64,000 nt of DNA from an uncultured virus (IMG/VR IMGVR_UViG_3300028666_000003) (taxonomy: Duplodnaviria > Heunggongvirae > Uroviricota > Caudoviricetes), in IMG/VR virus record IMGVR_UViG_3300028666_000003; one strand, written 5' to 3'. A program made the translations under genes and the position numbers. Positions 4,797 to 50,585 of this stretch are shown here, one piece after another. Under the pieces are notes generated by a model. It made no database searches. It was not told where the DNA came from and saw only the letters and a program-made list of their open reading frames with translations. Each line of letters starts with the position of its first letter. Positions within the stretch are counted from its first letter, which is position 1.

Positions 4797-5498
4797 CTAA
4801 AAAACAGGTCCAAGATCCGGGTAAAGCCCACAGAACCGCTTGAACACGTCTTCCATGGTGCCACTTGTCTTCAGAACTTTACAATCCACATCGCCTTGTT
4901 CCAGGTAGAACTTCAATTGCCTTATGCTGTTCTGATACTTCTGCGCCACGAGAGCAGTGTTTATCTCTTTGCCTCCATTGCGAATCTGAATGCGACGGAG
5001 TGCCTCTTTGAGAGGAGTCCCCATAAAACAGAAACTTACTTGCCTTGAATGGACTTCTCTGAAACCTTTCATGATCTCGTAAAAAGTGCTGCAAATATCC
5101 CCCACGATGACCCCCTCAAAGAGAATGTGGACATCCTTCTTCCACAGCGCTTTAAGGATCTGTTTGACAACTTGAGTGTCTCCCAATGAGTCACAACCAC
5201 CACACGCAGTATCCTTGAGATAAAGACCGATGAGGACCACTCCATATTGGGGTAGAAACGTAGCAACAGGCTTCTTATCCAACTGGGTGAGCGTAAGTAA
5301 GACAGCCTTCTTGTCATGCTGAATCATCCTCATCGGAATGGTGGACTTGCCTGTGCCATTTGCGCCTTTAAGATTGATTGCGTAAAGAGGCTTTCGGGGG
5401 CCTTTCGCAGCTTTTAGCGTGGAAAGTCTCCAGACGGGAATCCCATCGTAGCTGCTGATCCAAAGTTCCTCATCTCTTTCGATAGATCTGCGTGCCAT
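4797..5498 (-). CDS. P-loop nucleotide kinase (5hmdU-DNA kinase-type)
   Basis: INLKGANGTGKST Walker A; IGLY..CGGCD; ILFEG; lies between the aGPT-Pplase genes. Confidence 0.75.
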   Translation of the reverse strand: MARRSIERDEELWISSYDGIPVWRLSTLKAAKGPRKPLYAINLKGANGTGKSTIPMRMIQHDKKAVLLTLTQLDKKPVATFLPQYGVVLIGLYLKDTACGGCDSLGDTQVVKQILKALWKKDVHILFEGVIVGDICSTFYEIMKGFREVHSRQVSFCFMGTPLKEALRRIQIRNGGKEINTALVAQKYQNSIRQLKFYLEQGDVDCKVLKTSGTMEDVFKRFCGLYPDLGPVF

Positions 5499-7410
5499 TG
5501 AGAATCCCTCTCTTGGTAAACGGTGCAAGGCCAATCATGTGACCAGTATCACGCATTACATGTTCCATGCTTTTCTGAATACACAGTTGCGGAGGTTTCT
5601 GATATTCTCCAAGCAATTCCCACATCAGGCACTCTTTACGGAATTGCCAAAGCACCATCCAATCCACGCCACTTGTGATATCGGTCTCTTGCATTTGCAG
5701 GATTTCATCGGCGCCTCTGGAAAGATAGTATCCCAAATACCTGCCCTTGGTTGGTCTCCAATAGCCCTTCCAGGAGCACAAGCAGGATTCCATGAACCAA
5801 TAATCCATGGGCACATCAGGATATTCATCCTTGATCTCTTTCATGAGAGCCTCCAGACCCTCTTCTAGTTCTGTCCACTCCTCCTGAGTGAGCTTTGCTT
5901 TTGCCCAATCGGGCCTGTTTAGGGCGTAACATAAGCCTGCACGCGGAGATGCGGCATCTTTCAAGAAAACGGTATCAGCCTGTATTGGCATGCCCATGCA
6001 CCTTGCAAGGGCTTCAGTCATGATATAGGTTGCGTATCTTCCAAATCGAGTGAGAGTCTTGAGTTTATCAAATACCTTGTGAAAGTTCTTGACTGGGTCT
6101 TTGCTCTTCAGAAGTTTGCTGTAAAACTCTTCCTGAGCATTAGGAGTCTGAGAACCAATCATGTCCTTGTAAGACAGGAACATCTCCACGAAATGCCCCT
6201 TCTCCCATTTACGGTCTGTATTATACCGGAGTTTCTGCCAGTTTGCAGCGTGCCACCGTTCAAGTCTGCCTACATCCACCTTTTCAAATTCTGGAAACTC
6301 CTGGAGCACATAGAATACGGTCCCAGGTTGATAGAAAACACCATAGAGCCAACAAATCCAATATTCCTGAGACTTGCTGAACTCAAATCTTTGAAAAAGG
6401 TAATTGAGCATGGGGTATGCAACGTCAATTTCCCAGGACGTGATGGCAGCCACAGAGTAGTGCTTGAAGCAGGTTCGCATGTCCTTGCGGTAATCCCTGG
6501 TCTTGCCATTGTCCATCTGCAGGTCTTTTCCACGGTTGGTCTGCTTTCTGTTGTCCAACCATTGATGATAAATGATGTCAGGCCGCTGGAACCTAAATTC
6601 CTTGGGGTATGAAAAAGGGAGCTCAATAGCATCCCGGTTAATGTGCTTGTCCAAGGTGTAGACAGTATATGGCTTTGCTTCCCAGATAGCAACTCCAAGA
6701 TCCTCGGTGATACCTGACTTCTTGATAGCTCTCTGGATAATGTCACGAGTGGAAGCAAATCCAATAAATCCCCAGGCTTTGATGAACACAAACCATAGCG
6801 GTCGAATGTGGTCCCTGATGGCATAGACGTTTCCATCTCCATCCAGGAATCCACAGGCAAAGATTGGGGGGTCAACCCGGTGAATCCTGTCAAGTCCTTC
6901 AGCAATCGCTGATCGAATAACGCCAGATCCCTCATCGGTGATGCCTGATCCCTCCATGACCACGATGGCATTTTCAATCTCCTCAAGGATGATCTCCGAG
7001 TCATTATCAGTCTTGCAGGACACGTTGTAGAGGGGCTCATACTCTTCACGGGTGGCCATGGACACAAGACCATTATGAACGATGGCCAATCTTCCAACCG
7101 CGATAGGCTGATTATTGGCGTTGGTTTCCCAGTCTCCACTCGTGCTGTAGCGGGTATGCGCGATGAGGGACATGGGTCTGTCCCTGCGCATATCTTCCCA
7201 CTCCCTAGACTTCAGGAACTCACTAGCGGGCACAGGGGACTTCCTGACCTGTAGTCTCCAGCGGTCTGTGTATTCAGGCCCACGTAACCAGGATACTCCT
7301 GTGGCGTGCATCCCACGAATCTGACTCTGAAGCATAAGTTGTTCAACAAAATTCAACGCCTCATGCTGATGAGTTTTGTTCAACAACCTACATCCTACAA
7401 TCCCGCACAC
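5470..7410 (-). CDS. Class II (Ntn) glutamine amidotransferase fused to aGPT-Pplase2/amino acid:DNA transferase domain
   Basis: GTG start at 7410 after GGAG gives MCGIVG; RGMHATG, AHTRYST, NNQP, HNG, TDNDSE, RD..RPL. C-terminal EIDVAY, YWICWLY, TDRK, RFGRY, ESCLCSWK, RYLGYY. Confidence 0.8.
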   Translation of the reverse strand: MCGIVGCRLLNKTHQHEALNFVEQLMLQSQIRGMHATGVSWLRGPEYTDRWRLQVRKSPVPASEFLKSREWEDMRRDRPMSLIAHTRYSTSGDWETNANNQPIAVGRLAIVHNGLVSMATREEYEPLYNVSCKTDNDSEIILEEIENAIVVMEGSGITDEGSGVIRSAIAEGLDRIHRVDPPIFACGFLDGDGNVYAIRDHIRPLWFVFIKAWGFIGFASTRDIIQRAIKKSGITEDLGVAIWEAKPYTVYTLDKHINRDAIELPFSYPKEFRFQRPDIIYHQWLDNRKQTNRGKDLQMDNGKTRDYRKDMRTCFKHYSVAAITSWEIDVAYPMLNYLFQRFEFSKSQEYWICWLYGVFYQPGTVFYVLQEFPEFEKVDVGRLERWHAANWQKLRYNTDRKWEKGHFVEMFLSYKDMIGSQTPNAQEEFYSKLLKSKDPVKNFHKVFDKLKTLTRFGRYATYIMTEALARCMGMPIQADTVFLKDAASPRAGLCYALNRPDWAKAKLTQEEWTELEEGLEALMKEIKDEYPDVPMDYWFMESCLCSWKGYWRPTKGRYLGYYLSRGADEILQMQETDITSGVDWMVLWQFRKECLMWELLGEYQKPPQLCIQKSMEHVMRDTGHMIGLAPFTKRGILNGTQIYRKR

Positions 7411-7468
7411 ATCAGACTCCAAATACAAGACAGGGGTCGCATGGACCCCTGCCGTTGGTGTTGTGAAG

Positions 7469-38804: not shown

Positions 38805-39890
38805 TTAGTAGAGAGGCGCCAGCCAGGACGGGAAGGGAGCAGCACCGATGTCCTGCGTGGAATCCATGATGATGCGGGCATCGCGGAAGATGATGGCGAA
38901 CCCGGTGGTCAAGGACACGTAGGTGCCGTTGATCTGGCGCTGGATGATGCGTTCCGACTCAACCTTGAGGGGCTGGGCAGTGAGCTGCACGGCGGCCATA
39001 TCGGAATCGACCATGAGCAGCTGGCCGGAGGGCACAGCGTTGTGAACGTAGGCGTCCCAGTTGCGGGGCACCGGGGTCTTCAGGTTGAGCGTGAGCTCAG
39101 GGTCAGCGATCTTGTTGCTGCGCCGGAACTCGGTCAGGTCCAGCACGGTGTTGATCATGTCTTCACCGCCGACGATCTTGGTCCACTTGCGGTTGCGCAG
39201 GGCAGCGCGCACCGACATGCGGATGAAGTCGGCATACTGCAGGCCGACGCCAGCACCGGACAGATCGGAGGTCTTCTGGGTGATGCCGACGCTGGGGGCA
39301 GCTTCGGAACCATCCGCCTGGTCACCGTTGATCAGGGTGGTGATGAGCTGGGAACCGAGGCTGGAACCTAGCTTGACGCCGACATCCATGAGCCAGAGGC
39401 TGAGCATGGCGATGGACGAGTACTGGATGCACTCATCCGCGACTTCCAGGCCGATGCCGGTCTTGCCGACACGGACGGACTTCTGGCCATACTTCAGGGA
39501 GCCGAGGGTCATGGATTCAGCCACACCCAACTGCTGTGGGGCGTTGGGAAGGCCGGTCAGGTCCCAGAAGGGCATCACCTGCGTGAGCTGCGGGATGGGC
39601 TCTTCACGGACGATGAGATCCTTGTAGATCGGGGCGTTGATGAACCCTTTGCGAATGGCGTCCCTGAAGATTTCAGGAACCAGCCAACGCTGGGATTCGT
39701 CGCGGTCCAGGATCAGGCCCACGGTGGCGGTCATGGGATCGACATCGAGCTCAGCATACAGCTTGTCGATGGTCATGCCCTCGTAGTTGTCCTTGAGGTG
39801 CTGGGACAGGGTGACATCGAAGCCTTTGCTGCGCTTCTTCTCCATCTCTGCCACAAGTTTCTTGGGGCTCAGCTGTTCGGGGAACGTCAT
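38805..39890 (-). CDS. Major capsid protein (HK97 fold)
   Basis: 361 aa, strong codon bias, LVPE, V.E, K.G..E.I; after protease and decoration genes. Confidence 0.85.
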   Translation of the reverse strand: MTFPEQLSPKKLVAEMEKKRSKGFDVTLSQHLKDNYEGMTIDKLYAELDVDPMTATVGLILDRDESQRWLVPEIFRDAIRKGFINAPIYKDLIVREEPIPQLTQVMPFWDLTGLPNAPQQLGVAESMTLGSLKYGQKSVRVGKTGIGLEVADECIQYSSIAMLSLWLMDVGVKLGSSLGSQLITTLINGDQADGSEAAPSVGITQKTSDLSGAGVGLQYADFIRMSVRAALRNRKWTKIVGGEDMINTVLDLTEFRRSNKIADPELTLNLKTPVPRNWDAYVHNAVPSGQLLMVDSDMAAVQLTAQPLKVESERIIQRQINGTYVSLTTGFAIIFRDARIIMDSTQDIGAAPFPSWLAPLY

Positions 39891-40450: not shown

Positions 40451-41719
40451 TTACCCGTGGATCGAAGTGACGCTGGCCTTCAGGCGCTCAGTTTCCATGT
40501 TGGTGTGGTTGTGCGTGTCAGGGATGTTGCCAGGATCAGTCTGCTGGGAAAGCTGACGGGACAGTTCTGCACTTCCGCACTTGACACAGTGCAGGGGAGC
40601 GATCTGCTCAGCCCGTTCCTTGTAGGTGGAAATGAAGGACTGGGCCACGGCCAGATCCGAATTGGAGATCAGGTTGCGCATGGTGTCGTTGGCCTTGGTG
40701 GCTTCCACCAGGTTGTAGAGGCGCAGAGCCTCATTCCGGGTGTCAACCACCAGCTTCTCACCCAGAGTCGCATTGGCCTTGAGGGCCTCCACTGCAGCCT
40801 TGAGGGTGGTCAGTTCCGTGGTGGCCGTGCCCAGTTCCACGACCTTGGTGGTCACGTCTGCCGTCAGGGCAGTAACCTGGGTGGTCAGATCAGTCTTGAC
40901 CGTTTCGGCAGCGGTCAGCTGGGTCTGAAGTTCCAGGGCCTTGGCAGCCTGTTCCTTCAGTGCAGCAGTGATGGCCTCTTCAGTGGGATCATCCCCCAAC
41001 GAGAGCCCGAGGGCAAGTGCGAGTTTCTTGGGGTCCACGGATACCTCCTGTGAAAAAGATTGTGAGTTGTGCGTCTTAGCTCCAGGGTCTGCACCCATCC
41101 AGACAACGCTGAGTTCATAGACACGATTAACTTTGGTCACCAAAGCCTGGACAGTCTTTCCATCCACAACTTCGCCCATCTTCATGTAGAAGTCCATGTC
41201 GGACATCTTGGGATGGGACTTGATGTGCTCAAAACCGATGGTGACGGAAACGCTGTCCAGGACACCGCTGATGACGCCCCGAGCTACCTTGGGGTCAGCT
41301 TTGGTATCCAGACGCATCATTCCAGTCACCCCATGGGGCACGTTAGGAGTAAGCTCATCCCAGAAACTTTCCTGGGTTTTGCCGAGCCAACCATCCACAT
41401 CGAAGTCGTGATTCTTGAGAATGACCAGGTCATTGAACATCCCAGCCATGACAGCTTCCTTGAGGGCCTTCCCGCCCTCATGACCGAAGTTGATGGTGCT
41501 GTTCTGGACTTCTCCGGCAGACAGCATGCGGGTGGGCACCAGCACATAATCCTCATCCTTGGGATTGGTGTAGGATGAGATTTCCTCATCGGACATGGTA
41601 GAAAAGTCGATCCCCAGGGAGTTGATGCCAAACTGCTTGAGGGATTCTCGCTTGAGAACCTTTCCAGCGGCAGTTTCGTCCAACCCCACTTTCAGGGTGA
41701 CAGTCATTGACAAGGCCAT
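40451..41719 (-). CDS. Prohead protease with C-terminal scaffold (internal GTG start at 41038)
   Basis: NH, SVSV, YELS.V..GAD protease motifs; coiled-coil C-terminus; AGGAGGT before GTG 41038. Confidence 0.8.
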   Translation of the reverse strand: MALSMTVTLKVGLDETAAGKVLKRESLKQFGINSLGIDFSTMSDEEISSYTNPKDEDYVLVPTRMLSAGEVQNSTINFGHEGGKALKEAVMAGMFNDLVILKNHDFDVDGWLGKTQESFWDELTPNVPHGVTGMMRLDTKADPKVARGVISGVLDSVSVTIGFEHIKSHPKMSDMDFYMKMGEVVDGKTVQALVTKVNRVYELSVVWMGADPGAKTHNSQSFSQEVSVDPKKLALALGLSLGDDPTEEAITAALKEQAAKALELQTQLTAAETVKTDLTTQVTALTADVTTKVVELGTATTELTTLKAAVEALKANATLGEKLVVDTRNEALRLYNLVEATKANDTMRNLISNSDLAVAQSFISTYKERAEQIAPLHCVKCGSAELSRQLSQQTDPGNIPDTHNHTNMETERLKASVTSIHG

Positions 41720-41817: not shown

Positions 41818-41972
41818 TTCTTGTTCCCCTCTCTCTGTGCCTTCAACTGGGCCCGAAAGGCTGCCTGACCCGTAGTGATGGCATTGGAGGTGTTGATGGA
41901 GAGGATCATGCTGTCTGGTTTGCGCTTTGGGCGTTTCTCAGGTATCTTCAGGGGGGTTTCATTTTTGGTCAT
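41814..41972 (-). CDS. 52-aa basic hypothetical protein
   Basis: GGAGG RBS, ATGA coupling. Confidence 0.5.
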   Translation of the reverse strand: MTKNETPLKIPEKRPKRKPDSMILSINTSNAITTGQAAFRAQLKAQREGNKK

Positions 41973-42829
41973 ACTGCCTCCATTGAATAGGGGATTTCAG
42001 AAGCGTTCTCATAAAAGTCAACCACGGCGAGGCTATGCCGGCAGGATGGGTGGAATGGTGGGCAAGCAAATCCCATGGATTGAACGTCGGCATCAGAGGT
42101 CTTCTCCAACTCCTTGAGACCCAATCCACCCTTGAGGAAGGGCTTCACAATTGCCATGCCCTCAGGACCTGCGTTGATAACCTGGTCTAATCGGGTGAGT
42201 TCAGGGGCCAGTTCAAAGGTGCGACCCAGCATATCCTGGCAGTAGACGCAAGTCAGGTTATCATCAGGACCCACAACCTCAAAGGACCGTGCTCCAGCCT
42301 GTCGCATACCCTGGAGTTGACTGTAAGTCCTGGCTTTGGAGACAGTCGTGTCGATGATCATCCTGATCCGCCACTTCTCCAGATCAAGCTGTTCTCCCAA
42401 GGCATTCACAAAAGCCTGGAGTTCCCTGGGACTATTGCCAATAGCAGCGCCATTCTCAATATAGGCTTTGCGGATGTAATCCACCACAGCCTGTTTTACA
42501 CCAGGGTCCTGGATAAACTGTCCAAGGTAGAGTTTGTCAGCGTTCTCCAGGTATTGGGCTGCGCGCCGATCTGCCAGGGTCAGGTTGGGACTGTTCCTGA
42601 GTGGGTCATCGGTCACAAACCCACGATAGGTAGAATCCACCTGCTTGTGAACCATCTCCTTGAACTGGGAGGAAGTCATGTCCAGGGTGTATTCATGCTG
42701 CAGGATGCTGTAGAGGCTGTCCACGACCTGATCCACAAGAGCAGAGTCATAGGTCAAGGCTGACATGTATTCAATGATCTTGTTGAACGCTGTTGATTCA
42801 GCTTTGTCCATCACGGACAGGACTTGGAC
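41969..42829 (-). CDS. Head morphogenesis protein (Mu gpF/SPP1 gp7-like), possibly made as a portal fusion
   Basis: I..T..S.AR, D..TC.YC, PPFHPSCRH. Confidence 0.85.
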   Translation of the reverse strand, partial: VQVLSVMDKAESTAFNKIIEYMSALTYDSALVDQVVDSLYSILQHEYTLDMTSSQFKEMVHKQVDSTYRGFVTDDPLRNSPNLTLADRRAAQYLENADKLYLGQFIQDPGVKQAVVDYIRKAYIENGAAIGNSPRELQAFVNALGEQLDLEKWRIRMIIDTTVSKARTYSQLQGMRQAGARSFEVVGPDDNLTCVYCQDMLGRTFELAPELTRLDQVINAGPEGMAIVKPFLKGGLGLKELEKTSDADVQSMGFACPPFHPSCRHSLAVVDFYENASEIPYSMEAV

Positions 42830-44483
42830 AAAGATACCTCCGGTATCGGTCCTCAACCTTGGGTTCCTTCTTCTTTTCTGCGAAAGAATGATCACAGTGA
42901 CTATGGTCATCCGTGACTTGCTTGAGAGTAGCAGGTTTCCCGTCCAGTTCCAGGTAGTTCATGTCAATCACGTGCTTGTATCGGCCTGAGTCCTTGTTGA
43001 ACTCGAAGATGGCATGGGACTTAGTGGCGCCCTGCTTTTTCTTGACAGTGGAGTTCTTTTTGTTATTGTTATTGCCAGTGCTAGACCCACCAGGATGTTG
43101 CTCGATGTTCTGATCACCAGCTCCTGTCATTGCTGGATCAGGCAGCGGTTCTGACTCGGCAGGTGTGGTATAACCACAGAGTCTGGCTTTCTCATTCTGG
43201 TCGATGATCCCCTCTTTGTAGAGAGTGGAAGCATTGCTGATGTTGATCATGTCAGACTGGGCTTCTTGCAGGTTGCTCAGGGCCTGTGACGACTTGAAGG
43301 ACACGATGATGTCTGCAGTGAGACCTGCCAGGGCCAGATCCAGCCCCCAACCAAACTCCAGAGCATGGCCTACCATACCCTGAATGCTCTTGAGCTGGGA
43401 GATCATCTTGGAATAGACCACGCTGGCATAGGTTTCCGTGGTGGAATAGGTGCGCCCGTGCATCGCAGGATCTGCCCCGATGGCTGAGAATAACTGCTCC
43501 TCGTTGAGCTTGAAAATCTCAGCGATACCTCTGGCATCAGCGGTCACGCTGTTAACCTCAAACTCAAAGGCACCCTTGAAACCCACAGCGATGCCATCAG
43601 CGAAGTTGTTCTTGATCTGGTCCGTGATCTTGTCCAGGTAGCGGGAGCACCGGTCATAGTAGGCTTCTCCAAGTTCTCCAGGCTTCTGAGCTGGGGGTTC
43701 CGTGGAGTAGGTCATGAGACCCATGAGACCAGCCTTCTTCATCACCTTGTTAATGCTCTTGAGCATCAGGCGCTGCAACTGGATGGGCTCCAGGGCAGCC
43801 AGGAATGGGGGCAAAGCGTAGGGGCTGCCTTCCATCATCTCCAGGTTGGAGTAGTGGAAGGTACGCTCATTCAGCACGATGGGAGCCAGATGAGACATGA
43901 TAGCCATCTGGAACTTGGGAATCTGCACAGGATAGTAGCCCATGCGATCCATCTTGGGAACCCAACGGATTTCTGAGACAGGGACCAGGAAAACCTTCTC
44001 CACCCCATCCAATTGCCTATTGGGCACCCATTCCATAGAAGTGGCACCACTCCTGGCGATCTGGCCGAACAGGGCATTGACAAGACCATCAGGACCCACA
44101 GAATAGGGGAAGATCTGGTTGCTCATCTTCTCAATGCGAGCCACAGCAGCTTCGATCTTGGCGTCTTCCTCAGCGTTCACCGAAATGAGATGGCCTGTGT
44201 TTCCCAACTGGATGATGTGCCCCACGGCCTGTCGCAGATCAGGATTCTGCAGGGAGAGGTTCACCAGCAGGTCGTAAATCTCCATCGGCCACTTCTTGGG
44301 GAGCACGAAGGAGAACAGGCCCATGTCGCTGGCAAGTGACTGCAGGAATGGCAGGTCCTCAGGGATGGAAACACGTTTAGTGGGGAGACCAGCCTTACTG
44401 AAGGGTGGAGTCCCATCACCGATGGGATTCGTGTTTCGATTTCCAGACTTGCTCAGAAAGCTCAGAATGTTTGGCCATGCCAT
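42798..44483 (-). CDS. Portal protein
   Basis: Follows the terminase; G...EWV, PY..PP..AL; size fits. Confidence 0.8.
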   Translation of the reverse strand: MAWPNILSFLSKSGNRNTNPIGDGTPPFSKAGLPTKRVSIPEDLPFLQSLASDMGLFSFVLPKKWPMEIYDLLVNLSLQNPDLRQAVGHIIQLGNTGHLISVNAEEDAKIEAAVARIEKMSNQIFPYSVGPDGLVNALFGQIARSGATSMEWVPNRQLDGVEKVFLVPVSEIRWVPKMDRMGYYPVQIPKFQMAIMSHLAPIVLNERTFHYSNLEMMEGSPYALPPFLAALEPIQLQRLMLKSINKVMKKAGLMGLMTYSTEPPAQKPGELGEAYYDRCSRYLDKITDQIKNNFADGIAVGFKGAFEFEVNSVTADARGIAEIFKLNEEQLFSAIGADPAMHGRTYSTTETYASVVYSKMISQLKSIQGMVGHALEFGWGLDLALAGLTADIIVSFKSSQALSNLQEAQSDMINISNASTLYKEGIIDQNEKARLCGYTTPAESEPLPDPAMTGAGDQNIEQHPGGSSTGNNNNKKNSTVKKKQGATKSHAIFEFNKDSGRYKHVIDMNYLELDGKPATLKQVTDDHSHCDHSFAEKKKEPKVEDRYRRYLCPSPVRDGQS

Positions 44484-44492
44484 GGAATGCTC

Positions 44493-46133
44493 CTATGAGA
44501 ATAAAACGGGCAAGTCTCGTTGTGGTTTGTAGCGAAGCCGCGCAAGTTGAGCCAGTGCGAGTGCGATCACGAGGTCATCGTTGTAGCCTTCATTAGCTCT
44601 GGGGTTTGGCATGCCGACATCCTGCCAGTTGAACACGATCATCTCATTCAGCGTGCGCATCCCATTGACCAGGAAGTTGCTCTGGGGGAACACGCCCTCC
44701 ACTCTCAATCTGTCATGCTCTCGGATGAGCTCCTCCAACGTGGAGATGAGCACAGGACGATTGGCCTTGGTAGTGGTGAAACCTAGCATCAAGGTGTTCT
44801 CAGTCGTCAGTTTCTTTGTGCTCACTTCAACGTCGATGGTGGCGTCTTCCTTCATGTAGGCATAGATGTTGGGGTAGTTCTTGTCAATGAGTTTCTGCAC
44901 AACCGTCAGACCCACACCATTGCGTTCAGGAACAAGCTGGGCCCAGTTGTATTTCTTCCCTAATGCCACAAGATAGTTGGTATATGTATCAGGTTTGCAC
45001 ATGACACGGAACTCAGCCACCTGTTCTCCGGTCTGCCAGTCCACTACCTGGGCCCCATTGTAGTCAGCCCCATCCCCAGTGGCTACGTCCGCACCGATGA
45101 TGTAGAACCGGCCAACTACAGGTTCCTTGAAGATATACAGGCCCTCAGCCCGTTTGCCATAGAGCCCCTCCATATCCTCAAACTGATTGTTGTCATAGAG
45201 CACTTTAAGAGGTTTCTTGTGCCGGAGAGTGTCTGCCCAGTCCATGATGATGGCTGAGTCGAATACTGGACGGCCAGAGTTCAGAAAGTCACAGTCAACT
45301 TCCTGGGCGCACAGCGCCGGTCCCAACTCTCTGCGCTGAATGCGATACCACTGCTCGTCTCTGTTGGGATGCATCTTCCAATGGAGTTTGATTGGGTTGA
45401 AGTCAGATTCCTTGGAACAGGCATCCTTCCACTTGTTGGCAAAGAAATTGCCTAAACCGTTCGCAGTAGAGATAAGGATAGCCATTCCACCCGTGGACAG
45501 GGTAGGGAATGCAGCTGACCAAATCTTCTCGATCCACCGAACGAATGCAGCCTCATCCACAATCAGGAGGGACAGACCCTCTGACCGGCCTGCATCCTCC
45601 GAAGTAGGCACTGACATAATACGGGAGTTGTTCTTGAAGATCAGCTCTAGCGTGTTCTCGTGTTCAATCTCACCCTTCAACCATGGGGGCAAGTGCTTGT
45701 AGGTGTATTTGATCTTGTCCATGAACCGCTGGGCTGTCTTCTCCTTGATAGAGATGATTTCCACAGTCTGGTCAGGTCGGAACATAGCGAACCATAACGC
45801 AAACAGGGCTGTCAACCAAGACAACCCCATCTGACGTGGCTTCAGCACAATGTTAAAAATAGACAGCAAGAAGTGCTTTAGGGTAGCCTTCTGGAACGGG
45901 AACAACAAAAAGGGAATCCTACCCTTCACTGGGTCTTGGATAAAGCAGTAGTTGTTCAGGAAATGGGCAGGATTGGCTGCGCTCCTGAGGTACTCTTCCA
46001 ACTCTTCCTTGCTCTCAGGGGGCCGCCAGCCATCTGTGAATTTCCAAGGAATCCTGGTATCCTCATACTTCAGGACCACTTCCTGCCTTGAAGCAGTCTT
46101 TTTCTTGGATTTGGTTGCTTCCTTGACACTCAC
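44493..46133 (-). CDS. terL: Terminase large subunit
   Basis: LKPRQMGLS, IVDEAAF, ISTANG, GADVATG.G.DY, ERNGVG, DDLVIA. Confidence 0.95.
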   Translation of the reverse strand: MSVKEATKSKKKTASRQEVVLKYEDTRIPWKFTDGWRPPESKEELEEYLRSAANPAHFLNNYCFIQDPVKGRIPFLLFPFQKATLKHFLLSIFNIVLKPRQMGLSWLTALFALWFAMFRPDQTVEIISIKEKTAQRFMDKIKYTYKHLPPWLKGEIEHENTLELIFKNNSRIMSVPTSEDAGRSEGLSLLIVDEAAFVRWIEKIWSAAFPTLSTGGMAILISTANGLGNFFANKWKDACSKESDFNPIKLHWKMHPNRDEQWYRIQRRELGPALCAQEVDCDFLNSGRPVFDSAIIMDWADTLRHKKPLKVLYDNNQFEDMEGLYGKRAEGLYIFKEPVVGRFYIIGADVATGDGADYNGAQVVDWQTGEQVAEFRVMCKPDTYTNYLVALGKKYNWAQLVPERNGVGLTVVQKLIDKNYPNIYAYMKEDATIDVEVSTKKLTTENTLMLGFTTTKANRPVLISTLEELIREHDRLRVEGVFPQSNFLVNGMRTLNEMIVFNWQDVGMPNPRANEGYNDDLVIALALAQLARLRYKPQRDLPVLFS

Positions 46134-47059
46134 TCGTCACCCCGCTCCTTTTCCCCAATAGACATGATCTCCCGGTCTTCATCAGTGAGTTCAATCACTG
46201 CTGGGATGTCTCTGATGTTCTTTACCTTGCGGGCTGAGGGGAGCACACAGGACAGAGTGCTGGCTGCAAATTCCTGCAACTGGTCTGTGCTAGCCATAAC
46301 TCCATTGCCATTATTGATCTGCACGGACTTGGCATGGATGACCTGCTGTAGTTTCTGGAATCCACCACTCATCTTGATGAGATTGTCAATTCCATTGGTA
46401 GCTCGGTTGGCCAAGTCCAAGGAGGACAGCATGGCGCTATACATGGCTGCTCGATCCCGACCTGTGAGTGCCCCAAGTTTTTTGCCTTTAAACTCCACTG
46501 TGTTTTCGTCAGCCGTGTCAATATCTCCACGAATGATGTTGTATAGGGACAGAGCACGCCCACGATCCTGTAGTTTCATCTCCATAAGCATGTAGGCCAG
46601 GGCAGTCACGTCCCTGACGTTATTCTCTGTGTAGAACTTCTCAAATGTGCCTTTGATGGATACCAGGTCTTTCTCGATGGTCTCCATAGGCACATTCAAG
46701 GTTGCAGCCAGTTCCGTGACTGACATTAACTTACAGTCATGAGTATGCCCGTTGAGCATCCACTGAACCACCTCTTCCCTGCGTTCCTGAGTCTCCCTCT
46801 TGGCACCCAAGGGGTCAGTCATCGCTAGGCCAGTCTGCATGGTATTCACAGCGTGGTTCATTCTTGCAGGCGTGGTTCTGGGAGTGCGAATGATCTGTGT
46901 TCCATCATCCATCTTGTTGTCATTGAAGATAGGCTGCTCAGGCATCTTGACCTTCAGTTTGGGCAATTCCTGTGCTTCCCGTGATGGTTTCTTAATTGCT
47001 TCAGTCTTCTTGGCCTTTTTACCCAGCCTGTCTAAACCCGCTAATGCAGCCAATGTCAT
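46130..47059 (-). CDS. Putative terminase small subunit/HTH protein
   Basis: Directly upstream of terL; HTH-like SVTELAATLNVPMETIEKD. Confidence 0.55.
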   Translation of the reverse strand: MTLAALAGLDRLGKKAKKTEAIKKPSREAQELPKLKVKMPEQPIFNDNKMDDGTQIIRTPRTTPARMNHAVNTMQTGLAMTDPLGAKRETQERREEVVQWMLNGHTHDCKLMSVTELAATLNVPMETIEKDLVSIKGTFEKFYTENNVRDVTALAYMLMEMKLQDRGRALSLYNIIRGDIDTADENTVEFKGKKLGALTGRDRAAMYSAMLSSLDLANRATNGIDNLIKMSGGFQKLQQVIHAKSVQINNGNGVMASTDQLQEFAASTLSCVLPSARKVKNIRDIPAVIELTDEDREIMSIGEKERGDE

Positions 47060-47170
47060 ACCAGCCTCCTGTCTGATTCCATAGGACGAACCCAGCAAAA
47101 TGTTGAACGAAAAATTGAGGTAGCTAATCGGTCTTTTCGGTCCTATACTTAGGGACGGAGGAAGACCGAT

Positions 47171-47419: not shown

Positions 47420-48023
47420 AATTGTCCCCTTTGACAGACGACTTCTTAGTGCCTCAGCAGAACTAAGAAGGTGGTTTAGCGTCACCAAGGGCAACAAACG
47501 TCTGTTGCGTATAGGCACGATGCCAGAGATGTTGTTGCCTGAGTCCTTCCTGAAATCCCCGCAGCATCCTGTGGAGCTCATGCTGATAGCTCTTATGGAG
47601 GGAGCCTGGATCAGTGCTGACGATTGGAAACCCTATGCCCGCCTGACCATTGCCTCTCGCCTGAAGCGAAAGAGAGCCCTCATATTCCATGACACGTTTG
47701 CTGAGATGCAAGAACCTGTGATGGACTACCAGCTACACGGTGGAACTTTCAAAGAACAACAGCGTATTCAGAAGTTTGCCAAACACATTTTGACTTTGCG
47801 CACTCCAGACGTGTATTTACAGGGTTGTGCTCGTCTGTGCCTATCCATCGCAAGTGAAAACCAGATAACCGCATGTGTCCACCCATTACACTGGATTCGT
47901 GCTGTCATAGCCACTCAGGATTTTCAACCTGCATTCGGTATGGCAGCTCTCCAAGTGGAGATGATGGACCAGAAGAAGACCTTGTGTAGGCTGATCAGGA
48001 CAGAACTGCCCGAGAACATCTAG
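47409..48023 (+). CDS. Hypothetical protein
   Basis: Coupled 204-aa ORF. Confidence 0.6.
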   Translation: MSIEIVPFDRRLLSASAELRRWFSVTKGNKRLLRIGTMPEMLLPESFLKSPQHPVELMLIALMEGAWISADDWKPYARLTIASRLKRKRALIFHDTFAEMQEPVMDYQLHGGTFKEQQRIQKFAKHILTLRTPDVYLQGCARLCLSIASENQITACVHPLHWIRAVIATQDFQPAFGMAALQVEMMDQKKTLCRLIRTELPENI

Positions 48024-49375
48024 TCCACTTCAGCGATCATCTGAGCCTGGCGTTTCTCAGCGATAATTGCCTGAGCGACTGCCAGGCTTTCCTTTGTGAA
48101 AGTCATATGGTTCTTAGGGTCCACGACAATCCGCAGATTCCGACTGGTGTTGAATTTCCCAAAGGGATGCTTGATGTCAGACAGGAAAGCACTCACTGTG
48201 GCTTTAGCAGCTGATTCCAAGCCACCGAACTTTTCCATCACAAGACTCACAAGATCCTTGCGACTGCAGTGTCCAGCCACGATTAACGTGTAGAGCAAGC
48301 TATTTCTGCTACCCAGTGTAAATCCCATGGAATCTGTGTTGGATACCTTGCGCCTGGGCGGAATCCGCTTCTCACCAAAGGAAGGCAGAGGCTTCTTCAT
48401 CTTCTTGGCCTTCTCAGGGTTCTCATACCCAGGAATCTTGTCCAGATCCAACTGTGCTGCCACCAAGTCCCGGTATTCAGGGTCAGTGTGCAGTTTGTGT
48501 AAGGATGCTTTGTAGACTGCTTTGATGCCTTCAGGGCTGATACGATACTTCTTGGCTAGGTTGGGACCACAGTTCCAATCATGCGTCAAGGCTTTGAGGA
48601 TGGCCAGGTCCCGGTCAATGGAACGGATGAAGTCCATGGAAGGCACAGAAATAGTGAGTCCCCCAAAGAAGTGGATCAGTCGTTCAAAGGCACGCTCTCC
48701 AATCAGTTCCCGGATCTCAGGAACGAGGGTATATTTGAACTTATTGGCAAATAGTTGGTCTTCTCTGACCTCCAAAGCCCCCTTGCTGTAATAAACACGA
48801 AGGCTGACCAAAACATGGTCAGCCAGGTAGCGAGCATACTTGGGATTGACGTCATAACCATGTGTGAGGGTTTTCAGCACTCTTGCACGATTACTCTCAT
48901 AGTCGTTGGCTAAAAGCACACCGAAGATGTAACGAGCAGCAGGTTGATAGCTGTCATCCTCCAATCGCAGGTTCTTCAGCAGATTGCTGTCCATGACCAA
49001 CTCATCCTGAGGAGTAGCGTTTGCAAGTGGGCCATACTCAGGAACTGCTGCATGTGTGTCAGGATCGATGTCATCTGATGACCGCTGGTAATCTCCAGGA
49101 CGTAGCCGAACCTCTGACCAGATTGCCTGTTTGATCACCTTTGTGGCATAAAAGAACAGGTTGCCTCTGGCTGGGTCAAACTTGGCAATCACCTCAGCGG
49201 CTTTGATGAGTCCAAACTGGGTCAGGTCATTCTCATCAAAGTTGCGAGGATCAAAGGAAACTGAGCGAATGATGCCACGGATGAGTGGCGCAAAGAGGGG
49301 CACAATCTCATTCTTAGGTTTGCCCAGGGCAATGTAACGAGACACACGCTCTGCTTCAAAGCAAAAATCAGCCAT
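48020..49375 (-). CDS. Multidomain transcription factor: sigma region 2 + Mor-like domain + C-terminal wHTH-like domain
   Basis: DLTQFGLIKA..FDPARG.LF.YA; ELIGE..L..FFGG.TI.VP..RD..I..LAKKY.IS. Confidence 0.7.
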   Translation of the reverse strand: MADFCFEAERVSRYIALGKPKNEIVPLFAPLIRGIIRSVSFDPRNFDENDLTQFGLIKAAEVIAKFDPARGNLFFYATKVIKQAIWSEVRLRPGDYQRSSDDIDPDTHAAVPEYGPLANATPQDELVMDSNLLKNLRLEDDSYQPAARYIFGVLLANDYESNRARVLKTLTHGYDVNPKYARYLADHVLVSLRVYYSKGALEVREDQLFANKFKYTLVPEIRELIGERAFERLIHFFGGLTISVPSMDFIRSIDRDLAILKALTHDWNCGPNLAKKYRISPEGIKAVYKASLHKLHTDPEYRDLVAAQLDLDKIPGYENPEKAKKMKKPLPSFGEKRIPPRRKVSNTDSMGFTLGSRNSLLYTLIVAGHCSRKDLVSLVMEKFGGLESAAKATVSAFLSDIKHPFGKFNTSRNLRIVVDPKNHMTFTKESLAVAQAIIAEKRQAQMIAEVD

Positions 49376-49937: not shown

Positions 49938-50585
49938 CTAATTACTAGCCCAGTCTGACGTCACTCCCTGAGCTTTACACATGCGTTCGATCTTGGTTAG
50001 GGCTTCCTGGATGAGTTGCCATCCACGCTGTTTGGACACATGGCAGAGAGCCGATGCATCCGCAATGGTCATTGGTTCTCCCAGGAATCCATACACTGCC
50101 CTGATGAGAAACCTTTTCCGGGGGGAAAGACGCATCAGGAAGTGTTTAAGCAGATTCTGCGCAGCAGTCTTGAAGAGTTCGTCTGGCTCAGGGGGTGCCG
50201 CTAGCTGCGACTCGAATGGCTGCGGTCGGTAACTGGTGTCCCCCACGGGAGCAGACAGATAGACAAAGTTGAACATTATTTTTGGCCGGTCTTCCTTCTT
50301 CATGGCCATGTAGTTACGCTTGGGGATGTGGACCACGCTGGACTTGTAATACAGTTTCCTGATCTCCTGACGCATCCTGAAGATGGCATAGGTGGAGAAT
50401 GAGGCTGCAGAGTCGTGCTCTTCCTCATAGTTATGGGCAGCCACAGTGGCCCCCAGGAGAGCTGCTTGGATCAAATCCTCCAGGTCATACGTGCTGTTAG
50501 GCACCTTGTGGGCACTAAGAGCAAGGGTGACTGCAAGACCATGAACTGAACTGACACGTTCTTCAACAATCTGTCTACTTACCAT
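49938..50585 (-). CDS. Sigma-70-family phage sigma factor
   Basis: EDLIQAA.LG..A..Y, FSTYA, V.IP, L.PR..I..YG, HTH VSKQR..Q...AL.K. Confidence 0.85.
   Translation of the reverse strand: MVSRQIVEERVSSVHGLAVTLALSAHKVPNSTYDLEDLIQAALLGATVAAHNYEEEHDSAASFSTYAIFRMRQEIRKLYYKSSVVHIPKRNYMAMKKEDRPKIMFNFVYLSAPVGDTSYRPQPFESQLAAPPEPDELFKTAAQNLLKHFLMRLSPRKRFLIRAVYGFLGEPMTIADASALCHVSKQRGWQLIQEALTKIERMCKAQGVTSDWASN

Follow-up and report, generated by a model that had tools for sequence, protein, structure and literature searches.

We describe a junction between two head genes in a 64,000-nucleotide (nt) stretch of DNA from an uncultured virus of the Caudoviricetes (IMG/VR record IMGVR_UViG_3300028666_000003), hereafter called the window. 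The window belongs to the genome of an uncultured myovirus-like phage, and the runs that contain the stretch are labelled as rhizosphere metagenome. On its minus strand, the reading frame of a portal protein overlaps a second frame that encodes a protein remotely similar to the MuF-type minor head proteins, and the two frames meet at a sequence resembling the +1 frameshift site of prfB, the gene for RF2. Comparison of this junction with those of related phages indicates that the site is probably a programmed +1 ribosomal frameshift of the prfB type, by which translation would pass from portal into MuF.

The portal-MuF junction

The portal frame reads CGG AGG TAT CTT TGT C at positions 42842-42827 of the minus strand, letter for letter as a first-pass annotation of the window had reported. 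The junction comprises the following elements.

42798..44483, minus strand: portal gene, zero frame, 561 amino acids (aa); ATG 44483 after TAGGAG, stop codon TGA 42800-42798
42837..42841, minus strand: internal Shine-Dalgarno (SD)-like GGAGG, 3 nt before the CTT P-site codon; the sole GGAGG within the portal open reading frame (ORF)
42830..42836, minus strand: TAT (E site), CTT (P site, 42833-42831) and T 42830, the base proposed to be skipped (CTT_T)
42798..42830, minus strand: zero-frame tail past the shift site, made up of TGT (A-site Cys) and 9 further sense codons, then TGA
41969..42829, minus strand: MuF-like coding sequence read in +1: 286 codons that open with GTC 42829, then the stop codon 41971-41969
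open from 42958, first ATG 42910, end 41969, minus strand: second ORF (MuF-like frame), listed as ORF 41969..42910

The first-pass annotation had likened this sequence to the prfB cassette, with an internal SD 3 nt before CTT-T, and the arrangement of GGAGG (42841-42837), TAT and CTT bears this out. The P-site codon CUU followed by U is present as CTT_T (42833-42830), and CTT_T or CTT_C stands at 4/4 of the related junctions described below. Codon 551 is the sole in-frame CTTT of the portal ORF. Past CTT, the zero frame holds 10 sense codons (CPSPVRDGQS) before TGA as the 11th codon, which agrees with the earlier placement of the portal stop; this tail would be made only by ribosomes that stay in the zero frame. 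Skipping T 42830 gives GTC CAA GTC CTG TCC GTG ATG..., translated as VQVLSVMDKAES, which is the frame of ORF 41969..42910 and hence the gpF-like frame that a +1 slip had been predicted to enter.

A single four-letter step, with CTTT read as L, yields a product of 837 aa consisting of 551 portal and 286 MuF-like residues. The two parts are not fused in one frame in the window; they lie in frames 0 and +1, and reading is uninterrupted only with CTTT as L. The +1 frame does continue a functional protein, as judged from the collinearity of the 837-aa product with in-frame fusions and from purifying selection on the MuF frame, both presented below.

Conservation of the junction in related phages

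Three collection scans yielded 50 loci, in which the contigs of L001-L003 recur as L011-L013. Four independent related lineages with DNA share the layout of the window: L010, the two strains L001 and L003, and L002. Their MuF proteins are 49% (L010), 43-45% (L001 and L003) and 41% (L002) identical to that of the window, and MuF lies in the +1 frame relative to portal in 4/4 of these lineages. The junction reads ccGGAGGTATCTTC in L010, caGGAGGTATCTTC in L001 and L003, and gcGAGGTATCTTTGAC in L002. At all four junctions GAGGTATCTT followed by T or C is kept, and no other 10-nt block within 45 nt to either side is invariant. The sequence of L002, GAGG TAT CTT TGA C, contains the full prfB-type CTT TGA C, and here the portal stop occupies the A site. 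Similarity in the portal frame extends up to ..[RK][YF][RA]RYL and is then lost, leaving tails of 0-10 codons, and similarity in the MuF frame starts directly past the site in the relatives. A conserved motif and in-frame fusions are what the first-pass annotation had suggested looking for among relatives, and both were found.

The two strains L001 and L003 are 95.8% identical, with differences at 32 of 766 positions. Upstream of the site the differences are synonymous in 9/9 cases when read in the portal frame and in 0/9 when read in the MuF frame; downstream, 19/23 are synonymous in the MuF frame and 1/23 in the portal frame. Because the synonymous pattern flips frame at the site, purifying selection switches frame at the motif, and the MuF of L001 is not decaying. 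In the same pair, 96 nt around the junction (L001:188-283, L003:3021-3116) are free of differences where ~4 would be expected, which is an extra conservation of the overlap zone.

Further homologues are known as proteins only (P0004-P0018 and P0023-P0032, except P0026 and P0027, which were matched to loci). All ten portal homologues retrieved with their C-terminal region have R-x-Y-L near the end, followed by 0-10 codons. After YL the protein ends at once in four (P0028, P0030, P0031, P0032), continues with Q in five and with R in one. A stop codon in the A site is implied for 4/10 since those proteins end exactly at YL. On the MuF side, G[GR]IF is present in the homologues whose N-terminus was called far enough (P0009, P0010, P0011, P0013, P0016, P0034, P0035, P0037), and GGIF is the +1-frame translation of the motif. 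By the genetic code, portal YL and MuF GIF can be drawn from the same bases only if these are GG TAT CTT Y. In this phage AGG, TAT and CTT account for 14%, 45% and 15% of their synonymous sets; that they are used in all lineages despite these shares implies a constraint at the nucleotide level.

Isolated phages gave no match to the region by blastn or to MuF by tblastn. With tblastn of portal against isolated phages, 4 records only were returned, none above 32% identity, and a single-protein search of viral contigs found no relative.

In-frame fusions and separate genes in the wider family

The distant loci contain 26 long open frames, and in 25 of these the window portal and then the window MuF match collinearly on one ORF, with E values of 1e-101 to 1e-33 for portal and 1e-44 to 1e-23 for MuF; the exception, L031, is matched by MuF only. 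In loci not cut at a contig end, the fused ORFs measure 735-868 aa. A full HMMER search with the family profile retrieved 2288 proteins at E 1e-3 or better, and 104 of the best 150 representatives reach 735 aa or more; the portal domain is present in 102 of these 104. Fusion in one frame is the common architecture of the wider family.

A MAFFT alignment of the shifted products with the fusions is free of gaps at the junction; there, for instance, DRYRRYL followed by VQVLSVMDKAES stands opposite DRFQREYF followed by AAVYPVLRKSRN. Most fusions have a Y opposite that of YL, and nothing in them corresponds to GGIF. Since the input included the shifted product, the alignment shows compatibility and is not proof.

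Portal and MuF are separate genes in 4 more distant loci. In these, MuF starts beside an SD-like stretch or overlaps the portal stop (L008:2494-2530, L009:2560-2585, L014:2267-2295, L037:2110-2116), and the arrangements seen are TAGGAGG plus 7 nt plus TTG, GAGGAG then GTG, and the stop-start overlap TGATG. Such starts in the separate-gene relatives set the clade of the window apart. The wider family has three layouts: in-frame fusion, +1 frameshifted, and separate genes.

In three loci a very long C-terminal extension follows the MuF-like domain on the same ORF (L031:824-5326, L037:2006-5377, L014:2180-4321), with open frames of 1501, 1123 and 713 aa, respectively. These extensions recall the MuF-linked polymorphic or polyvalent proteins treated in passages of PMC5576092.

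Identity of the two proteins

The 561-aa ORF was assigned to the portal family from a profile match over most of its length and from its place after the large terminase. It matches phrog_3753 (portal protein) at E 6.3e-80, with residues 64-490 covering profile positions 52-472 of 503; among the Pfam portal models there was no match at E 0.01 or better.

At a cutoff of E 0.01, Pfam gave no match to the second ORF (P0002). When 20 members of its family were compared with the models, Phage_Mu_F (PF04233) was matched by 5/20 (best E 0.028) and Phage_min_cap2 (PF06152) by 4/20 (best E 0.0042); these matches are below threshold and far from significant, and the Pfam gathering score for the MuF superfamily was not reached. 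PHROG families of minor head, head morphogenesis and portal proteins match 12-15/20 members, the portal match being to the C-terminal part of a 717-position profile. An AlphaFold model of the MuF-like protein has a mean predicted local distance difference test score (pLDDT) of 64.8. A Foldseek search of BFVD with this model returned 6 matches whose E values are 1e-3 or better, but the TM-scores are low (0.2-0.46); the matched entries include minor capsid protein, head morphogenesis domain, MuF-like minor capsid protein and GpF-like protein. Searches of PDB returned nothing better than E 0.2 with a profile of the MuF alignment, and nothing at E 1e-3 or better with Foldseek and the MuF model. 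The place of the gene after portal and its remote similarity to minor head proteins both agree with membership of the MuF superfamily, and 'MuF-like' is a reasonable yet remote assignment for the second ORF.

Start codons in the MuF frame

In this phage, an SD of the AGGAG or GGAGG type lies a few bases ahead of most listed gene starts. In the region 14800-47100 (minus strand) the SD is often TAGGAG, and TTG and GTG starts are found mostly on doubtful ORFs. The MuF frame of the window offers five start candidates: ATG 42910, GTG 42895, TTG 42856, GTG 42814 and ATG 42811. No SD stands before ATG 42910, GTG 42895, GTG 42814 or ATG 42811, and the last two are without an SD-like sequence in the preceding 20 nt. 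The candidates nearest the motif are as follows.

42854..42856, minus strand: alternative start TTG, 8 nt past AAGGA; chosen by a gene caller as the start of P0003 (295 aa); position not conserved in relatives
42809..42814, minus strand: GTG and ATG in the MuF frame, without SD; ATG 42811 lies 8 nt before the portal stop and is a possible termination-reinitiation start

The first-pass annotation was correct that no SD-like sequence precedes GTG 42814 and ATG 42811. A conclusion that the frame lacks a usable start would be too strong for the window, as the annotation missed TTG 42856 with its AAGGA and ATG 42811 lies just 8 nt ahead of the portal stop. In the relatives, the start candidates precede the motif by 2 to 13 codons without any shared position, and they either lack an SD-like sequence or directly abut one. 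In L001 the MuF frame is devoid of ATG, GTG and TTG from its preceding stop codon to 21 codons beyond the site; where L003 has its sole ATG, L001 has ACG, which leaves the portal residue the same. The Met aligned with ATG 42811 is the called start in 7 homologues, and L or F stands there in 5.

Proposed mechanism

If the site is a programmed frameshift, most ribosomes would read through TGT and, 10 codons later, complete the 561-aa portal. On a fraction of ribosomes the internal GGAGG would pair with the anti-SD of the 16S rRNA at a distance of only 3 nt behind the P-site codon, and the CUU-bound peptidyl-tRNA-Leu would then re-pair with UUU (UUC in some relatives) one base downstream, and reading would continue in the +1 frame. 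The product would be the 837-aa portal-MuF fusion, and the portal ring would carry a few MuF domains. We infer that ribosomes shift at this site, and likewise how often they do so and the resulting stoichiometry in the virion. On a portal of 12 subunits, a shift of a few percent to ~10% may give a number of MuF domains similar to the copy number of SPP1 gp7.

A short spacing between SD and P-site codon is said to destabilize P-site pairing and to promote +1 frameshifting, in the words of the title of a 2010 paper by Devaraj and Fredrick that is among the references of PMC3711429. Passages of two articles give a slow A site as a key factor for +1 shifting (PMC2790909, PMC5009743). The A-site codons found in the clade are UGA, CAA, CGG and UGU, and the three that are not stop codons are less used in this phage (CAA 11.4, CGG 6.5 and UGU 3.9 per 1000). 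This fits the slow-A-site rule, but the tRNA pool of the host may differ, and CAA in the A site is also dictated by a lysine in the MuF frame.

The first-pass annotation had proposed that a fraction of portal subunits carry a C-terminal gpF domain. Comparison between lineages supports such a domain as probable on some subunits: motif and offset are found in 4/4 lineages, selection switches frame at the motif, L001 is without a start, and in-frame fusions are collinear with the shifted product. It is possible, and we put it forward tentatively, that in this clade of uncultured soil myoviruses the RF2 slip cassette is the sole route of MuF into the head, with no free MuF and with a ring made of plain subunits and one or few portal-MuF fusions in a ratio set by shift efficiency. 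That ratio would then be tied to host RF2 activity in members with UGA, and would be constitutive and low in members with a sense codon, such as the window.

Alternative explanations

Several observations weigh against a programmed frameshift. The motif is by itself no more than chance yields: GGAGGNNNCTTT occurs once in the window, counting both strands, against 0.59 expected, and it occurred at least once in 43/100 shuffles. Its weight lies in its position and in its conservation in relatives, not in its occurrence alone. The in-frame UGA followed by C that occupies the A site in prfB is absent from the window, which has TGT; with a sense codon in place of a stop, the efficiency of the shift may be low. 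No conserved RNA structure follows the site (RNAalifold on the 4 junctions: -2.6 kcal/mol without covariation), though the prfB type requires none, and a stimulatory downstream RNA structure was rejected on this result. The lineages that could be examined as DNA are 4 independent ones. The conservation at the nucleotide level could stem from double coding, with RYL of portal read over GGIF of MuF. Independent starts are possible in 4/5 DNA sequences, among them TTG 42856 and ATG 42811 of the window, and 7 homologues were called from the Met at the latter position. Transcriptional slippage was also considered and was rejected by inference, the T run being only 3 bases long.

The double coding and the possible independent starts are what an explanation by separate genes would build on. 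MuF would be initiated independently, either at TTG 42856 with its weak AAGGA SD or at ATG 42811 by termination-reinitiation, and the motif would be double coding left by an old split of a fused gene. The gene caller picked TTG 42856 for P0003, candidates lie upstream of the motif in 4/5 DNA sequences, upstream starts were called for P0009, P0010, P0011, P0013, P0016, P0034, P0035 and P0037, and 7 homologues were called from the Met aligned with ATG 42811. Double coding of portal ..RRYL over MuF ..GGIF would also be able to fix AGG TAT CTT, and separate genes do exist in a few more distant relatives. However, the positions of the candidates are not conserved, ranging from 2 to 24 codons ahead of the motif, and L001 has none at all, and no candidate has a properly spaced SD at a conserved position, though most listed starts have strong SDs. 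The MuF frame upstream of the site is without purifying selection (0/9 synonymous), L or F replaces the Met in 5 homologues, and the fused homologues match the Y-L of the portal frame and have no counterpart to GGIF. We regard separate initiation, the main rival, as unlikely. A mixed arrangement, in which a low-level +1 shift makes some fused subunits and an internal start also makes free MuF, overlaps both of the pure readings and draws on the same evidence as each, and motif and Met are both kept in the subclade closest to the window. Against it, parts of the clade can do without an internal start, as is shown by L001 and by the homologues that have L or F in place of the Met, and we consider the mixed arrangement unlikely as well.

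The frame break might instead be a sequencing or assembly error, or a recent mutation that inactivated a fused portal-MuF gene, an idea favored by the prevalence of in-frame fusions in the wider family. This is highly improbable. The same +1 offset stands at the same motif in 4 independent lineages, and the MuF frame is under purifying selection (19/23 synonymous). Two contigs are identical to the window around the site, with no indels: one from run X2 (depth 12.3), possibly the source of the window DNA, over 42400-43300, and one from a second run, X3, over 42728-42878. A single-base sequencing error, which the first-pass annotation had named as an outcome that would overturn its proposal, is excluded because the second-run contig is identical and the junction is conserved in relatives. 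A programmed +1 frameshift from portal into MuF is the explanation that we prefer.

Genomic setting

The junction lies within a head module, and the genes around it on the minus strand include the following.

44493..46133, minus strand: large terminase subunit (Pfam Terminase_6N E 6e-11; phrog_2 E 5e-46), adjoining the portal gene on its upstream side
40451..41719, minus strand: head maturation protease or scaffold-like gene (phrog_8158 E 3.7e-36), downstream of the MuF-like ORF
38805..39890, minus strand: major head protein (phrog_3922 E 1.2e-27)

Past the major head protein follow tail sheath, tube, tape-measure and baseplate genes. According to the homologue table, the portal and MuF proteins are also encoded on contigs of ~81.6 kb. 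The window has no tRNA genes.

A 322-aa ORF at 46130-47098 (minus strand) overlaps the start of the large terminase by 4 nt; it has a TTG start, no SD and no family match. A small terminase subunit is conceivable there by position alone, and nothing backs that identity. Just upstream of the packaging module, a 451-aa protein (48020-49375, minus strand) has a segment resembling a late transcription activator (phrog_836, E 4e-6), and a 215-aa protein (49938-50585, minus strand) matches phrog_351 (E 2e-17), a family of RNA polymerase sigma factors. Among the replication and metabolism genes are a thymidylate synthase-like gene at 1719-2975 (phrog_5131, E 3.5e-70) and, at 5470-7428, a 652-aa protein whose N-terminal part is glutamine amidotransferase-like, both on the minus strand.

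Significance and comparison with known systems

Little is understood of how the portal vertex acquires its sub-stoichiometric complement of MuF/gp7-type minor head proteins. If the junction described here works as proposed, a recoding signal would be a simple genetic answer, with the MuF ratio set by shift efficiency, and it would link the in-frame fusion, the frameshifted form and the separate genes within one family. It would also mean that an SD-CUU_U cassette of the RF2 type operates in a gene other than prfB, here one for a structural protein of the virion, and that its A site naturally holds a stop codon in some members and a sense codon in others; these members would form a natural series for studying the determinants of +1 efficiency. 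Gene callers mis-annotate such MuF genes, assigning arbitrary or truncated starts (P0003, P0019 and others). A literature search covering article passages found no paper on a portal-MuF frameshift, and the word 'portal' is absent from the 300,000 characters of text available from the recoding review PMC5009743.

The TAT before CTT is the usual E-site codon of prfB. With prfB the window shares the SD-like element, the 3-nt spacer (here TAT) and the CUU_U at which the shift onto UUU would take place. Passages of the literature give the prfB consensus as CTT_TGA_C with an upstream SD (PMC3711429) and describe CUU_U as its conserved shift site (PMC5009743); the full CTT TGA C is shared by the relative L002 and not by the window. 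Unlike in prfB, the context is that of a phage portal leading into a MuF-like head protein rather than RF2, and the A-site TGT of the window is a sense codon, so that there would be no RF2 feedback. The shift in prfB occurs near the start of the ORF, whereas in the window the site is at the end of a 551-codon ORF, and the short product of the window, the portal, is itself functional. In the part of PMC10274946 available, all +1 CUU-stop cases in RECODE are stated to be prfB.

The domain order of the proposed product has precedents among phages. Microbacterium phages of clusters EA3/EA5/EA8 and EB have in-frame portal-MuF fusion genes, as passages of PMC7302621 report, with the same order of portal and then a MuF-like domain on one polypeptide, and the same fusion is seen in distant relatives of the window. 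In the window itself the parts lie in different frames and need recoding, and a fraction of the subunits would carry MuF. SPP1 gp7, a MuF protein that binds the portal and is present in 1-2 copies per capsid according to passages of PMC5576092, and Mu gpF are both encoded directly after portal, like the MuF of the window, whose PHROG and BFVD matches are to minor head, head morphogenesis and MuF-like proteins. They differ in being free proteins with their own starts, and the family of the window matches PF04233 and PF06152 below threshold only.

Programmed frameshifting in structural genes of tailed phages is likewise established. In Listeria phage PSA, +1 frameshifts on CCC in the capsid and tail genes are stimulated by a pseudoknot or a stop codon, as described in the available text of PMC5009743; as proposed for the window, a programmed +1 shift there extends a virion protein of a tailed phage at its C-terminus, but without the SD-CUU_U cassette and in other genes. 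The -1 frameshift of the lambda-type G/GT tail assembly chaperones, cited in passages of PMC7302621, likewise yields two products, one short and one long, at a fixed ratio from one structural-gene mRNA. It differs from the junction proposed here in being a -1 shift on a heptamer and in involving other proteins.

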